Source: Escherichia phage VEc20
Length of the DNA: 64,000 nt
Reading direction: 5' to 3' (one strand)
Sequence record: MN022785.1
Part shown: piece by piece, positions 8,214 through 12,480 of the stretch
Numbering within the stretch: the stretch's first letter is position 1
How the letters are laid out: the number at the start of each line of letters is the position of its first letter
The notes under the pieces: model-generated
Database searches by the model: none
What the model was told of the DNA's origin: nothing
Seen by the model: only the letters and a program-made list of their open reading frames with translations
Program-made: the position numbers and the translations under genes

Positions 8214-8684
8214 TTAATCATGTTTCCACACCCCATCGGTATTTGACCAAAGCCGCTGATTATCTGATCCTCTCCACAGCTTTTTGGTCGGAAGATTTTT
8301 CTCATACTTCCCATCAATAATAACATCAACATATTTAAGCATTTCTAGTTGTTTAATATCTTCAAACTTATATCCTGTCCACAACCAAATGCTTTTATTT
8401 GGATAAAGATTTTTTACTGTTTGAACAATGCAATGAATAACATCTCGATTATCAGGATAGAGAGGGTCTCCTCCAGTTATAGTTAATCCTTCTATATAAT
8501 CATTATTCAAACATTCAATTAATTGTTCTAGTGTTTCACCAGTGAATGGAATACCATTTCTAGCATTCCATGTTGATTTATTATAACACCCTTCGCATTT
8601 ATGCAAACAACCTGTAACGAAAAGAACGACCCTGCAACCAGGGCCATTCACAAAATCGCAAGGATAAAATCTATCATAATTCAT
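8214..8684 (-). CDS. nrdG: Anaerobic ribonucleotide reductase activating protein (radical SAM)
   Basis: 156 aa; CxxxCxxC cluster (CLHKCEGC); ATGA overlap with nrdD. Confidence 0.9.
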   Translation of the reverse strand: MNYDRFYPCDFVNGPGCRVVLFVTGCLHKCEGCYNKSTWNARNGIPFTGETLEQLIECLNNDYIEGLTITGGDPLYPDNRDVIHCIVQTVKNLYPNKSIWLWTGYKFEDIKQLEMLKYVDVIIDGKYEKNLPTKKLWRGSDNQRLWSNTDGVWKHD

Positions 8685-10498
8685 TGATGCTTAACCCTAT
8701 GCATGATTTCTTTATTTTTGCCGAGATTAAATCCGCGTTCGTTCGGATTTCCCAAATAACCACACGTTCTTCTTATTGTATTCATCTTTTTAGGATCAGT
8801 TTCTCCACAAATAGAACAAACAAATCCGTTTTCAGTAGGAGTCATTTCATGGGTACTTCCGCATGTAAAACATTTATCCACTGGCATATTAACACCAAAA
8901 TAATCTAAATGTTGTGCAGCATAATCCCATACGGCCTCAAGACCTTTCAAGTTATTTTTCATATCAGGAAGTTCAACATAAGAAATGTGACCACCTGTCG
9001 CAATGAAATGATATGGCGCTTCACGAGAAATCTTTTCAAACGGAGTAATATTTTCTTCTACTGAGACATGGAAACTGTTAGTGTACCAGCCTTTATCGGT
9101 AACATCTTTTACGCTTCCATATTTTTCTGTATCGAGTTTACAGAAGCGATAACAAAGGTTTTCAGCAGGAGTCGAATATAAACTAAAAGCAAATCCGGTT
9201 CTTTCAGTCCACTGTTTAAGATGAGCATTCATTTTAGTTAAAATTTCTCGTCCAATATCACGACCGACAAGAATATTCAATTCGTGAATACCAATGTATC
9301 CTAAAGACACTGAACTTCTACCGTTTTTAAATAACTCAATTATATCGTCATCAGGTTTAAGACGAACCCCAAATGCACCTTCTTGGTAAAGAATAGGAGC
9401 AACAGTAGCTTTAACTCCTTTTAAGGAACTAATTCTACACATCAAAGCTTCAAAACATAAATCCATTCGTTCATTGAACAATTCAACAAATTTCTGTTCA
9501 TTGAACTGTGTTCCAATATAAGAATCTAACGCGATGCGAGGAAGATTCAGTGTTACAACACCAAGATTATTACGTCCATCAAGAATTTCATTACCAGTCG
9601 AATCTTTCCATACGCCCAAGAAACTACGGCAACCCATTGGAGAAACAGGAATAGATGAGCCGGTGATAGCTTTATTGTTCTTAGCTGAAATAATATCAGG
9701 ATACATCCTTTTGCTTGCACACTCTAAAGCAAGCTGCTTAATATCATAGTTCGGATCGTCTTTATAAAGATTAACGCCTTCTTCAACGAACATAACAAGC
9801 TTAGGGAAAATAGGAGTTATCCCATCACGACCGAGACCTTTAATACGATTTTTCAGAATTGCTTTCTGAATCATTCGTTCAGTCCAGTCAGTTCCCGTAC
9901 CAAATGTAATTGTTACAAAAGGAGTCTGTCCGTTTGAACTAAAGAGAGTATTTACTTCATATTCATAAGCTTGGAATGCATCGTATACATCTTTTTCTGT
10001 TTTAGATTGAGCATAATTCAACGCATCAGCGATTTGCCATTTTTCTGCATCCTCAATATGTTTTGCATAGGTGCGTTTAACATAAGGAGAAAGTACTTTA
10101 TCGACATTAGCAAATGTAGTTCCGCCATATTGGTGAGAAGCAACCTGTGCAGTAATTTGTGCCATAATTGCAGTAGCAACACCGATTGATTTAGGAGTTT
10201 CAATCTGTGCATTACCAAGCTTAAATCCGTTTTCAAGCATTCCTTTTAAATCTACTAAACAACAATTAGTAAATGGAAGAGCAGGGGAATAATCAATATC
10301 ATGGAAATGAATAATTCCGCTTTCATGCGCTTTCATAATAAAAGACGGGACCATATTTTTGGCAATGTGTTTAGACACAATACCAGCCATAAGGTCCCGT
10401 TGAGTTGGAAAAACACGAGAATCTTTATTAGCATTCTCGTTTAAAAGGTCTTTATTAGTTTTATGAATCAATCCTTCAATTTCTTTTTCAATTGTCAT
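8681..10498 (-). CDS. nrdD: Anaerobic ribonucleoside-triphosphate reductase (class III, glycyl radical); uninterrupted
   Basis: 605 aa; C-terminal glycyl-radical motif RRTCGYLG and Cys-rich zinc ribbon; single continuous ORF. Confidence 0.95.
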   Translation of the reverse strand: MTIEKEIEGLIHKTNKDLLNENANKDSRVFPTQRDLMAGIVSKHIAKNMVPSFIMKAHESGIIHFHDIDYSPALPFTNCCLVDLKGMLENGFKLGNAQIETPKSIGVATAIMAQITAQVASHQYGGTTFANVDKVLSPYVKRTYAKHIEDAEKWQIADALNYAQSKTEKDVYDAFQAYEYEVNTLFSSNGQTPFVTITFGTGTDWTERMIQKAILKNRIKGLGRDGITPIFPKLVMFVEEGVNLYKDDPNYDIKQLALECASKRMYPDIISAKNNKAITGSSIPVSPMGCRSFLGVWKDSTGNEILDGRNNLGVVTLNLPRIALDSYIGTQFNEQKFVELFNERMDLCFEALMCRISSLKGVKATVAPILYQEGAFGVRLKPDDDIIELFKNGRSSVSLGYIGIHELNILVGRDIGREILTKMNAHLKQWTERTGFAFSLYSTPAENLCYRFCKLDTEKYGSVKDVTDKGWYTNSFHVSVEENITPFEKISREAPYHFIATGGHISYVELPDMKNNLKGLEAVWDYAAQHLDYFGVNMPVDKCFTCGSTHEMTPTENGFVCSICGETDPKKMNTIRRTCGYLGNPNERGFNLGKNKEIMHRVKHQ

Positions 10499-10968
10499 TT
10501 TAAACTCTTTCTAAGCTGCTTCTTAAATGAAGCTATTAACTGTGTTTTGGTGTCAGATTCATTATATTCAAATCCTCTTTGAAGCATCTCGGCCATCATT
10601 TCCTCTTTTCCTAAACGAGAAAATTCCTTTGATTTATCTCCAACAAAGTTAGGGTGAATATTATTTTGGGTGTAATCGGATTTTAAATAAGTAAGTAAAT
10701 TTTCTAACCATTCAAGATAATCAACACCTTGTCCCTTTAAGCCAGAACGATTAAATTTGTGCTTCATTTGACCTTCTGCAGCATTGCAGAGATTACAAAG
10801 CAATCCACGTACCTTTCCTGCTTTTGGTCCATTTAATTCATGGTCATGGTCGAGGTGATTAGCTTGAACATCAGGATTTAGTTCTCGTTGGCAAATTAAG
10901 CATTTACCGTTTTGTGCATTATAAAATTTTTGTTTTTCTTCTTTGTATAATTTGCCAGTCAATAACAT
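10495..10968 (-). CDS. 49: Endonuclease VII (Holliday junction resolvase)
   Basis: 157 aa, same as T4 endo VII; zinc-binding Cys cluster (CLICQRE...CNLCN). Confidence 0.9.
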   Translation of the reverse strand: MLLTGKLYKEEKQKFYNAQNGKCLICQRELNPDVQANHLDHDHELNGPKAGKVRGLLCNLCNAAEGQMKHKFNRSGLKGQGVDYLEWLENLLTYLKSDYTQNNIHPNFVGDKSKEFSRLGKEEMMAEMLQRGFEYNESDTKTQLIASFKKQLRKSLK

Positions 10969-11000
10969 AATAAAACCCTTACCTTAAATAGATAAGGGTA

Positions 11001-11056
11001 TTTATTATTTTTAAGTATTGTAAAACATTCGATGCAATCGTTTATACTGTCGAATC
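11001..11056. repeat. Direct repeat copy 1 (about 50 bp), partner at 11219-11285
   Basis: ttttaagtattgtaaaacattcgatgcaatcgtttatactgtcgaatc versus ttcaagtattgtaaaacatttgatgcaatcgcttatattgccgaatc. Confidence 0.8.
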
Positions 11057-11187
11057 ATCTTTTTAGTAGGACGAGAATAGGTTCCTACGCAAGTGGTCAT
11101 ATGAGGGTCCGTAGAATGTCCTTTAATAAAAAGTTTCCAAACCTTACCGCCATTTAACTTTTCAGTATAAACCAATTCGGTTTTCAT
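11011..11187 (-). CDS. Small ORF (58 aa) sharing its C-terminal tail with the neighbouring 167-aa protein
   Basis: Hand-translated; ends IRQYKRLHRMFYNT, compare QKIRQYKRLHQMFYNT at the end of 11224..11727. Below the ORF-track size cutoff. Confidence 0.35.
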   Translation of the reverse strand: MKTELVYTEKLNGGKVWKLFIKGHSTDPHMTTCVGTYSRPTKKMIRQYKRLHRMFYNT

Positions 11188-11218
11188 TAAAATGTCCTGT
11201 CAGAAAAAGAATTTTGAG

Positions 11219-11285
11219 TTTTTTCAAGTATTGTAAAACATTTGATGCAATCGCTTATATTGCCGAATCTTTTGGTCAGAAAAAG
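11219..11285. repeat. Direct repeat copy 2
   Basis: See copy 1 at 11001-11056. Confidence 0.8.
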
Positions 11286-11727
11286 AAATTTGAGTTTCAA
11301 GCCATTCAATGTACTCTGCGGCAGCTTGCATCAGGTTACCTTCATAGCCATCGTTATTTTCTTGTGCAGCTAATTTAGCTAATGCGTATGAAATACGTTC
11401 ACCTTGAAAATCGGCTTTAGGCTTCTGAACAACTTGATTAGTTCTCTCTACAACTTCCTCGATTTCACCATTTTCAACGGATTCAGTATTCCACAAACAC
11501 CAATACGTAATTGGCTTATCATAGATGTTAATAATCTTTCCGTCGGAAAGTTCAATTTCAACAATTCCAGTGTCAGGCTCTATATCATCTTCACATTCTT
11601 TTGCAAGTTCACGAACTTTAAAGACAGTACCTGCACTAAGTTCCGGCCAGTAATTACATAGCCCTGTATCAATACGATTAATTCTAAACCACTTATCTAC
11701 TGTAATCATGTCCCATCTCCATATCAA
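11224..11727 (-). CDS. Hypothetical early protein (position of T4 pin/49.x genes)
   Basis: 167-aa ORF; true start may be the internal Met at 11709. Confidence 0.55.
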   Translation of the reverse strand: MIWRWDMITVDKWFRINRIDTGLCNYWPELSAGTVFKVRELAKECEDDIEPDTGIVEIELSDGKIINIYDKPITYWCLWNTESVENGEIEEVVERTNQVVQKPKADFQGERISYALAKLAAQENNDGYEGNLMQAAAEYIEWLETQISFSDQKIRQYKRLHQMFYNT

Positions 11728-11831
11728 TTAAGTCATTTATCGTTGGTTCATTATATACTGTTTCTTCATCAGTGTAAACCGGTTCTTCCGGCTCTGGCTC
11801 TACAGTTTCCCATCTAGCCGCCCACCAAGGT

Positions 11832-12002
11832 TTAACCCCGAAGCTTATTAAGTTCTTCATAATCAATCCAGGATTCTAATCCTGATGGCAAATCAGATTC
11901 AATTTCCCAAAGAAGTTCTTCAATTTTATGAAGACGATCTAGTTCTTCGGCTGGAATAGTAACCATTGACGGAGTTCTTGATACATTAATATCGTAAATC
12001 AT
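11832..12002 (-). CDS. Small acidic hypothetical protein
   Basis: Hand-translated 56-aa ORF (MIYDINVSRTPSMVTIPAEELDRLHKIEELLWEIE...); ATGA-type overlap with the upstream gene. Confidence 0.35.
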   Translation of the reverse strand: MIYDINVSRTPSMVTIPAEELDRLHKIEELLWEIESDLPSGLESWIDYEELNKLRG

Positions 12003-12004
12003 AT

Positions 12005-12220
12005 TTACCCCAATTTAACCATACAATCGCCGTATTTCCACTTAGAAATAGACTTTTCACCGTTAGAATAATAAACTTCGAGTTTAGCACGATTATTTTT
12101 AATTTGAATAACCTTGGCTGTCATCAAAGTTCCATACCCATAATAAACTGCAACTTCATCACCTACATATACCGCGCTTCCGCGGTAATCATGAATATAG
12201 TCAGTTCCTTCGAGCATCAT
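12005..12220 (-). CDS. Hypothetical protein
   Basis: 71-aa ORF. Confidence 0.5.
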   Translation of the reverse strand: MMLEGTDYIHDYRGSAVYVGDEVAVYYGYGTLMTAKVIQIKNNRAKLEVYYSNGEKSISKWKYGDCMVKLG

Positions 12221-12480
12221 TTAAAGTATTCCCGCAATTGATCAAATCCACCAATATGACTTCCATCAGGAGCAAATACCTGAGGCATTGTCAAGCCTAT
12301 TTGAGTATCACGACCTAGTTTAGTCAGAAGCTCAGCGATTTTCTCATCATCAAAAACACCTTTTTCCGGCATAATATTGATAAATTCAAACGGCTGTTTC
12401 TTCACAGTCAAAAGACGTTTTGCATTATCACAATACACACATTTATGGATGTTGCTATCATAACCATATACTTTAAACAT
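12217..12480 (-). CDS. nrdC: Thioredoxin/glutaredoxin NrdC
   Basis: 87 aa, CVYC active site, matches T4 thioredoxin length. Confidence 0.9.
   Translation of the reverse strand: MFKVYGYDSNIHKCVYCDNAKRLLTVKKQPFEFINIMPEKGVFDDEKIAELLTKLGRDTQIGLTMPQVFAPDGSHIGGFDQLREYFK

Follow-up and report, generated by a model that had tools for sequence, protein, structure and literature searches.

A coding repeat next to gene 49 of a T4-type phage probably reflects capture of a DUF7279 tail by the Lon inhibitor gene pin

The window analyzed here, a stretch of 64,000 nucleotides from Escherichia phage VEc20 (MN022785.1), belongs to an RB32-like Tequatrovirus in which pin is followed by ORF58 and then by gene 49. 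The products of pin and ORF58 end in the same peptide, encoded by two copies of a short direct repeat, which raises the question of which gene owns this tail and how the other acquired it. The explanation that we favor, with a probability of roughly 75%, is that T4-type Pin gained its tail by capturing a copy of the C-terminal helix of ORF58, a DUF7279 protein; the repeat is then explained by the presence, in one genome, of a tailed pin along with an intact ORF58.

The repeat core, D1, is identical at 45 of 51 positions between its two copies (D1a and D1b; Table 1). A repeat finder reports a direct repeat of 63 nt (10994-11056 and 11207-11269; 83% identity; start-to-start spacing 213), but about 17 nt of weaker similarity past the stop codons are A/T-rich junction sequence outside the true repeat. 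D1 is the sole pair with at least 45/51 identities within 500 nt across the 64-kb window, no such pair occurred in 20 first-order Markov simulations, and a 28-mer of the core occurs exactly twice, compared to 0 expected from 100 shuffles. At a lower threshold (at least 30/51 within 500 nt), direct-repeat pairs number 62 in the whole window, compared to 11-23 in five Markov simulations. Both copies of D1 encode, on the minus strand, IRQYKRLH(R/Q)MFYNT followed by a stop codon, such that ORF58 ends with ...KKMIRQYKRLHRMFYNT and the pin ORF with ...DQKIRQYKRLHQMFYNT. The preliminary description had reported two near-identical repeats of about 50 bp encoding this tail at the ends of a 167-aa and a 58-aa ORF; the repeats, the translations and their coding nature, as opposed to a shared regulatory element outside the genes, all hold. 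The two copies are 213 nt apart rather than the reported 220, and the 167-aa ORF exists as the maximal frame starting at TTG 11727, whereas the gene annotated in relatives is the 161-aa Pin starting at ATG 11709.

That description did not include a second direct repeat, D2, the copies of which are located between pin and ORF58 (D2a, 11199-11221) and within pin (D2b). They are identical at 22 of 23 positions, with 0 such matches expected by chance, and duplicate the former 3' end of pin. Along the direction of transcription, the order of the elements is D2b, D1b (pin tail and stop), D2a, the body of ORF58, D1a (ORF58 tail and stop), the hairpin and gene 49.

Table 1. Features of the pin-49 interval and its surroundings (window coordinates; a slash marks a junction)
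Feature	Position	Strand	Description
Gene 49	10495..10968	-	Endonuclease VII, 157 aa; downstream anchor of the variable interval; annotated in relatives
Conserved hairpin	10975..10999	-	Directly upstream of gene 49; 10-bp stem; -18.1 kcal/mol, z = -4.8
D1a, ORF58 repeat copy	11006..11056	-	Last 15 codons, TAA stop and 5 nt; SP1-like allele
ORF58	11011..11187	-	DUF7279 / phrog_3272 gene, intact, 58 aa; Pfam E = 3e-17; PHROG E = 3.4e-34
Vestige of unfused pin148 3' end	11185..11221	-	Reads TQNSFSDRTF and stop; overlaps the ORF58 ATG; includes D2a (11199-11221)
Putative illegitimate junction CTTGAAA/AAACTC	11219..11226	-	pin TGA and A-run joined to the vestigial pin end; alignment with SP1 and T6
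D1b, pin repeat copy	11219..11269	-	Captured tail IRQYKRLHQMFYNT, TGA stop and 5 nt; allele identical to the T6 pin tail
pin	11224..11709	-	PinA, inhibitor of host Lon protease; fused T4/T6 type, 161 aa; Pfam PF10465, E = 1.5e-47; annotation in relatives
In-frame fusion junction GAC/CAA AAG/ATT in pin	11269..11274	-	Comparison with EcNP1, T4, T6 and RB32; 137 nt absent relative to EcNP1
D2b	11275..11297	-	Within pin; encodes (E)TQISFSD; partner of D2a
Sigma-70-like promoter match	11750..11778	-	TTTACA, 17 nt, TATAAT; upstream of pin; 11/12 positions; consensus match only

The short ORF is a full member of its own protein family. ORF58 matches Pfam PF23945 (DUF7279) over profile positions 1-53 of 53, with 62.7 bits against a cut-off of 24.5, and phrog_3272 over positions 1-58 of 59; NCBIfam yielded no match. 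In each of the four Tevenvirinae genera examined, the DUF7279 gene carries the tail, and the motif RPTK(K/R)MIRQ(Y/F)KR(L/F)HR.FY.. ends the orthologs in Gaprivervirus RZ, Dhakavirus JS10, and Mosigvirus JK36 and ST0. The dN/dS values for comparisons with Tequatrovirus, Gaprivervirus, Dhakavirus and Mosigvirus orthologs are between 0.08 and 0.17 (pairs with estimable dS), and the reading frame is intact in the window, RB32, SP1, JE01, EcNP1, RZ, JS10 and JK36. These features indicate that ORF58 is a real gene under purifying selection. The exception is MLP2 (L021 901-1023), which has the window-type layout and in which a 2-nt deletion cuts ORF58 to 40 aa (...CVGTFSSY and stop), representing either a pseudogene or a sequencing error. 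Within the tail, synonymous changes among the orthologs are abundant (CGA/CGG/CGT, CAG/CAA, AAA/AAG, CAT/CAC, TAC/TAT) and the peptide is conserved; therefore, the constraint acts on the protein rather than on a DNA signal. The best AlphaFold2 model of ORF58 (pLDDT 81.7; 52-63 for the other four) places three beta-strands ahead of a C-terminal helix (residues 42-56) that corresponds to the tail, and we infer that, on ORF58, the tail is a constrained structural helix.

Foldseek search of the PDB with the ORF58 model returned nothing below E = 0.1; several of the best weak matches (none with E < 0.1) are dsRNA-binding proteins or domains, which is a lead only. The gene was matched in 369 phage records by tblastn, a word-indexed protein search yielded 10 clusters, and an exhaustive HMMER search of 1.8 billion representatives produced 9 matches, 3 of these at E <= 1e-10; the family is tiny, and the cluster and HMMER searches provide no functional lead. 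RefSeq relatives label ORF58 'hypothetical protein' and pin 'inhibitor of host Lon protease'. In the literature searched, DUF7279, RB32ORF078c and RB69ORF087c are nowhere mentioned; the bare string ORF087c occurs once, in PMC8056088.

On the Pin side, the tail lies outside the conserved family. The window Pin closely resembles T4 Pin and matches PF10465 (PinA peptidase inhibitor I24) with 161.3 bits against a cut-off of 27, and is accordingly annotated, by family match, as a predicted Lon inhibitor; T4 PinA inhibits the E. coli Lon protease (Hilliard et al. 1998, cited in PMC8835725). The PF10465 match, however, spans only Pin residues 4-141, leaving the tail outside the family model, and whereas PHROG 2167 covers residues 1-146, residues 147-161 are matched by PHROG 3272, the family of ORF58. 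The tail is absent in 20 of the 27 aligned Pin sequences; the T4-type tail was found in six T4-type database sequences and in the window's own Pin, and the Mosigvirus Pin P0047 bears a different tail of 9 residues. Tail-less homologs, from lineages outside the T4/T6 type, end with ...SFSDRAF and stop, ...LE(T/R/K)Q.(S/E/A)F..(R/K).F, or ...RRLS and stop. In RZ, JS10 and JK36/ST0, the tail is on the DUF7279 gene, and the Pin-C homologs end with ...AF or ...RRLS directly before the stop. Because the PinA models stop before the tail, the homologs are tail-less and DUF7279 is always tailed, the tail belongs to DUF7279 and the Pin copy is secondary. Thus, judging from sequence comparison, the last 14-16 residues of T4-type Pin appear to be a piece of the neighboring gene rather than a part of the Pin family, and the derived copy appears to be that of Pin, including T4's own Pin.

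The tail may evolve under different constraint in the two carriers. In the fused pins examined, 4 non-synonymous changes and 1 synonymous change were counted in the tail, one of the former replacing with N a histidine that all aligned DUF7279 sequences share; the corresponding counts for the ORF58 tail within Tequatrovirus are 0 and 3. These counts are tiny, and the contrast, in the direction of relaxed constraint on Pin, has a one-sided Fisher p of about 0.07. The AlphaFold2 model of the 161-aa Pin is poor (pLDDT 59, about 48 in the tail), so that the integration of the tail into the fold cannot be read from this model. The tail on Pin is probably neutral baggage.

Other arrangements are found in close relatives. 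Over 1.9 kb, the region shares 98-99% identity with many Tequatrovirus genomes, 778 records match the wider region, and the 341 nt around the repeats are 100% identical to several of these and 99.1% identical to RB32. Base-by-base alignment of Tequatrovirus genomes delineates four classes. In state (a), represented by EcNP1, JE01 and SP1, a 148-aa Pin ending with ...SFSDRAF or ...SFSDRTF is encoded by a gene whose stop codon overlaps the start of ORF58 (TAATG), followed by the tailed ORF58; the outgroups RZ and JS10 share this overlap, and therefore, state (a) is the ancestral layout. State (b), in KRT47 and S1P5QW, consists of pin148 alone, ORF58 having been lost by a 168-nt deletion between TTTTA-AT and TTTTACA-AT. 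In state (c), found in T4 and T6 (and in T2, judged from the match pattern), pin encodes 161 aa; compared to state (a), the interval lacks 137 nt between ...TCTGACCGA and ATGATT..., and Pin ...SFSD(R/Q) continues in frame into (M/K)I(R/Q)QYKRLHQMFYNT of ORF58. State (d), to which the window, RB32 and MLP2 belong, combines the fused pin161 through its TGA, an AA, 37 nt (AAACTCAAAATTCTTTTTCTGACAGGACATTTTAATG) corresponding to the SP1 pin 3' end and ORF58 start, and then ORF58, the product of which is identical to that of SP1.

The IMG/VR search with Pin yielded 6 loci, too few for a census, and a junction-specific blastn search of the phage collection was used instead. With a 70-nt query matched over at least 80% of its length, the window-type junction was detected in 113 GenBank phage records, and a further 74 records match only the part of the query that is shared with state (a), that is, pin148 and ORF58. 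An even 60-row sample of the 741 interval-matching records included 9 of state (d), 6 of state (a), 21 of state (c) (T2/T6 type) and 6 of state (b). The window-type arrangement is therefore common, and has been present in GenBank since RB32.

At the fusion junction in pin, the 5' side is Pin family sequence and the 3' side is the DUF7279 tail. D1b is identical to the T6 tail and 1 nt apart from the ORF58 tail of EcNP1, but 5 of 45 nt distinguish it from the ORF58 tail of the window itself; therefore, D1a and D1b belong to different allelic lineages. Downstream of the pin stop codon, D2a together with the start of ORF58 matches phage SP1 (MT682709) at 37 of 37 nt, and in SP1 this stretch is the actual end of pin and the beginning of ORF58. 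This vestige, upstream of the ORF58 ATG, is now non-coding; in the old pin frame, it contains a synonymous arginine change, CGA to AGG, as would be predicted for a stretch that was still coding in an SP1-like phage until it was joined here. It also holds, as read from the sequence, an AGGA Shine-Dalgarno motif for ORF58 at 11195-11198, 8 nt upstream of the ATG. The earlier suggestion of a partial tandem duplication or a recombination scar is supported by the layout D2b-D1b-D2a-ORF58-D1a together with the identity to SP1. The RB32 pin 3' end (L013 ~1216-1238) differs from that of the window in that D2b is identical to D2a and Pin reads ETQNSFSD instead of ETQISFSD; its 3' flank is SP1-like and its tail is T6-like, a combination suggesting that the allele is a mosaic or that the repeats underwent gene conversion.

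In the scenario that we favor, the starting point is the layout that the outgroups support: a pin148 ending with ...SFSDRAF, whose stop codon shares the sequence TAATG with the start codon of ORF58, and then the gene 49 hairpin. An in-frame 137-nt deletion with a microhomology of at most 1 nt would have converted state (a) to state (c). State (d) would then have arisen by an unequal, microhomology-level exchange, in the A-run (CTTGAAA/AAACTC), between a fused T6-type and an unfused SP1-type genome. By sequence comparison, the window shows such a composite: fused pin sequence of T6 type runs as far as the stop codon, the final 34 nt of an unfused pin of SP1 type are joined to it at the A-run, and an ORF58 allele of SP1 type follows. 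In the resulting arrangement, translational coupling of ORF58 to pin would be lost, with the AGGA in the vestigial pin end used instead. The repeats would also offer ways out of state (d): recombination between the D2 copies (76-77 nt apart) would restore the exact SP1 sequence, and recombination between the D1 copies (213 nt apart) would yield the T6 type.

The order of events behind the window type is less certain: the junction CTTGAAA/AAACTC fits equally well a 214-nt tandem duplication of an SP1-like unit, and the rampant mosaicism of the pin-49 interval blurs allele-based arguments. Under this alternative, the window type came first: the pin 3' end and ORF58 were duplicated in an SP1-like genome, the in-frame 137-nt deletion then occurred in the first copy, and the T4/T6 type emerged later through tail-tail recombination. 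The junction ACTTGAAA/AAACTC is indeed exactly the head-to-tail joint expected of a unit AAACTC...ACTTGAAA, and the SP1-like D2b of RB32, identical to D2a, is compatible with such an origin. Deletion between direct repeats occurs easily in T-even phages, and ST0 shows one in this very interval. Nevertheless, this course appears unlikely. It requires one step more than the exchange between fused and unfused genomes, and an in-situ duplicate should resemble the SP1-like D1a, whereas D1b is EcNP1/T6-like, the two differing at 5 of 45 nt. Among the genomes inspected, none has two full ORF58 copies at this site, and a second DUF7279 match is present in only 6 of the 369 records; because the T6 tail is D1b-like through its TGA, the D1b-D1a crossover would have to be confined to the last few nucleotides. 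The window itself does not carry a simple tandem duplication, given that only the D2 and D1 ends of the 214-nt unit are doubled and the ORF58 body is single. Insertion of a mobile element finds no support either: no endonuclease or transposase gene is located between pin and gene 49, and, set against a target-site duplication, D1 is 51 nt long at 88% identity, with copies from different allelic lineages.

Two further explanations invert the direction of copying or dispense with the protein altogether. That ORF58 is a decayed remnant of a duplicated pin retaining only the pin C-terminus, as the preliminary description proposed for the short copy, might be suggested by the shared tail itself and by existing annotation, the RB32 record noting ORF078c as 'similar to ... 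pin' and one GenBank record (H176) naming both genes 'host protease inhibitor'. MAFFT also scattered a few N-terminal identities between ORF58 and Pin, but this hint of a truncated pin paralog is overruled by BLASTP, which produced no alignment of ORF58 residues 1-43 with Pin residues 1-145 even at E <= 100. With its own Pfam and PHROG families, low dN/dS, a native tail, and full-length conservation in four genera whose Pin lacks the tail, ORF58 is hardly credible as a remnant; the copying went in the reverse direction, from ORF58 to Pin, and therefore, the 'remnant gene' designation is wrong. Only slightly more plausible, and still very improbable, is the possibility that the repeat is maintained as a DNA regulatory element, a promoter or terminator for gene 49 or ORF58 that overlaps two gene ends. 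The tail is located directly upstream of the gene 49 regulatory hairpin and is the best-conserved intergenus DNA stretch, with about 84% identity to Mosigvirus (H83-H86); however, a promoter and terminator scan, including sigma-70-like promoters, detected nothing within 11006-11056 or 11199-11297, synonymous changes accumulate in the tail with the peptide conserved, and KRT47, S1P5QW and mar005P1 lack any copy of the tail but retain gene 49 and the hairpin intact. Finally, the DUF7279 helix could be a portable module, captured by Pin at least twice independently (in Tequatrovirus and Mosigvirus) because it alters Pin activity. We consider this doubtful; if it were true, the helix might be an extra Lon-binding or degron-like element, or a nucleic acid-binding helix, and selection, rather than accident, would explain why 113 genomes keep ORF58 along with the tailed pin.

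The proposed capture by fusion of pin148 with the end of ORF58 has parallels in Mosigvirus. In this genus, pin is flanked by two DUF7279 paralogs, of 56 aa upstream and 59 aa downstream (for example, in JK36, L014 1248-2022). In a single Logan contig (L022 1329-1926), the microhomology ACGTTT joins pin to the terminal 9 codons of the downstream DUF7279 gene, resulting in a Pin that ends with ...EYLERR-FHRDFYNVY. In ST0 (L015 1248-1418), pin and the body of the downstream gene have been lost by crossover in ACTTTTATA, which is common to both DUF7279 tails, leaving a hybrid DUF7279 gene and no pin. In two ENA samples, a 1-nt deletion abolishes the stop codon of the upstream DUF7279 gene and fuses this gene to pin (P0046). 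Thus, recombination around pin has repeatedly involved the sequence that codes for the DUF7279 tail, and the Mosigvirus pin/DUF7279 fusions appear, by sequence, to be independent of the Tequatrovirus fusion. Pin also occurs in pieces. In Dhakavirus JS10 (L006 1727-2202), it is split between two genes whose order is permuted, with the 57-aa Pin-C module ahead of a Pin-N-like module of 100 aa (phrog_2167 matches), and Gaprivervirus RZ (L005 1721-1894) encodes only the 57-aa Pin-C module, annotated as a Lon inhibitor. Given these split modules, Pin itself looks modular.

The hairpin upstream of gene 49 is predicted to pair with the Shine-Dalgarno region of this gene and forms the right-hand border of all rearrangements seen; it is unchanged in all aligned Tequatrovirus classes, with few substitutions in Gaprivervirus, Dhakavirus and Mosigvirus. 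Hairpin sequestration of the gene 49 ribosome binding site was reportedly described by Barth and colleagues in 1988. Such sequestration in late genes present in early T4 transcripts is an established mechanism, for I-TevI and others (PMC2988022). The strong sigma-70-like match upstream of pin is likely the early promoter of a pin-ORF58-49 transcript.

The flanking minus-strand genes are nrdD (8681-10498) and nrdC (12217-12480). The window nrdD is uninterrupted and encodes 605 aa, whereas T4 nrdD is split by a group I intron carrying I-TevII; in MLP2, a homing endonuclease gene directly follows gene 49. Three small ORFs separate pin from nrdC (11693-12220, minus strand): a 49.1-like ORF, a 56-aa ORF and a 71-aa DUF7205 protein gene, as in RB32 and T6 and unlike T4, which encodes 49.1, 49.2 and 49.3 (L002 3367-4132). 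The 56-aa ORF (11832-12002, minus strand) has a sub-threshold Pfam match to the T7 gp5.9 RecBCD inhibitor (E = 0.0031; 17.8 bits against a cut-off of 24.5), and its ortholog is labeled 'antitoxin from a toxin-antitoxin system' in RefSeq relatives. A terminator-like hairpin, TCAGGATTAGAATCCTGG, at 11868-11885 on the minus strand, is located just upstream of the start of the 49.1-like ORF and overlaps one arm of a weak inverted repeat, I1 (11869-11888).

The literature searched on pin gene fusion in T4-like phages contained unrelated papers only, with no account of the origin of the Pin tail. If the capture occurred as outlined, T4 PinA, the protein of Lon-inhibition biochemistry, carries a tail that is foreign to the Pin family and was gained by deletion-fusion; the natural tail-less Pin of 148 aa is common and constitutes a ready natural experiment on the role of the tail in Lon inhibition. 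The alignments also amount to a base-resolution record of one small T-even interval cycling among four states through very short homologies. In this well-sampled phage group, the repeat is a recombination footprint of an ordinary kind and not a new system.

The processes involved, namely deletion fusion, unequal exchange and deletion between repeats within a plastic region, are all classical for T-even phages. The best-known counterpart of the pin fusion is T4 r1589, the classic T-even deletion that fuses rIIA to rIIB. As in r1589, the deletion removes the 3' part of one cistron along with the 5' part of the following one, leaving an in-frame chimera, here pin148 with the last 14-16 codons of ORF58 after loss of 137 nt. 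Unlike r1589, the pin fusion is a natural, widespread allele, the wild type of T4, T2 and T6, and the donor gene ORF58 has since been restored beside the fusion in the RB32/window type. Studies of phage T4 rII revealed deletions and duplications between short direct repeats or microhomologies, and likewise, the pin-49 variants are bounded by short repeats or almost no homology: ACGTTT in the Mosigvirus fusion L022, ACTTTTATA in ST0, TTTTA..AT in KRT47 and an A-run in the window. The pin-49 events differ from the rII deletions in being deduced from natural genomes, outside laboratory selection, and in that their repeats are partly products of earlier rearrangements. Arbiol and colleagues are said to have described, in 2010, PeSL cassettes, promoter-early stem-loop repeats that flank shuffled ORFs in hyperplastic regions of T4-type genomes. 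The pin-49 interval resembles these in that short repeats flank a small gene of variable presence in a plastic region of a T4-type genome, but D1 and D2 are coding sequences, for a protein tail and a pin end, devoid of promoter-like or stem-loop elements, and do not qualify as PeSL cassettes. The gene 49 hairpin, by contrast, resembles the ribosome binding site-sequestering hairpins of T4 in its predicted pairing, but with respect to the repeats, it is context, given that neither copy overlaps the stem.
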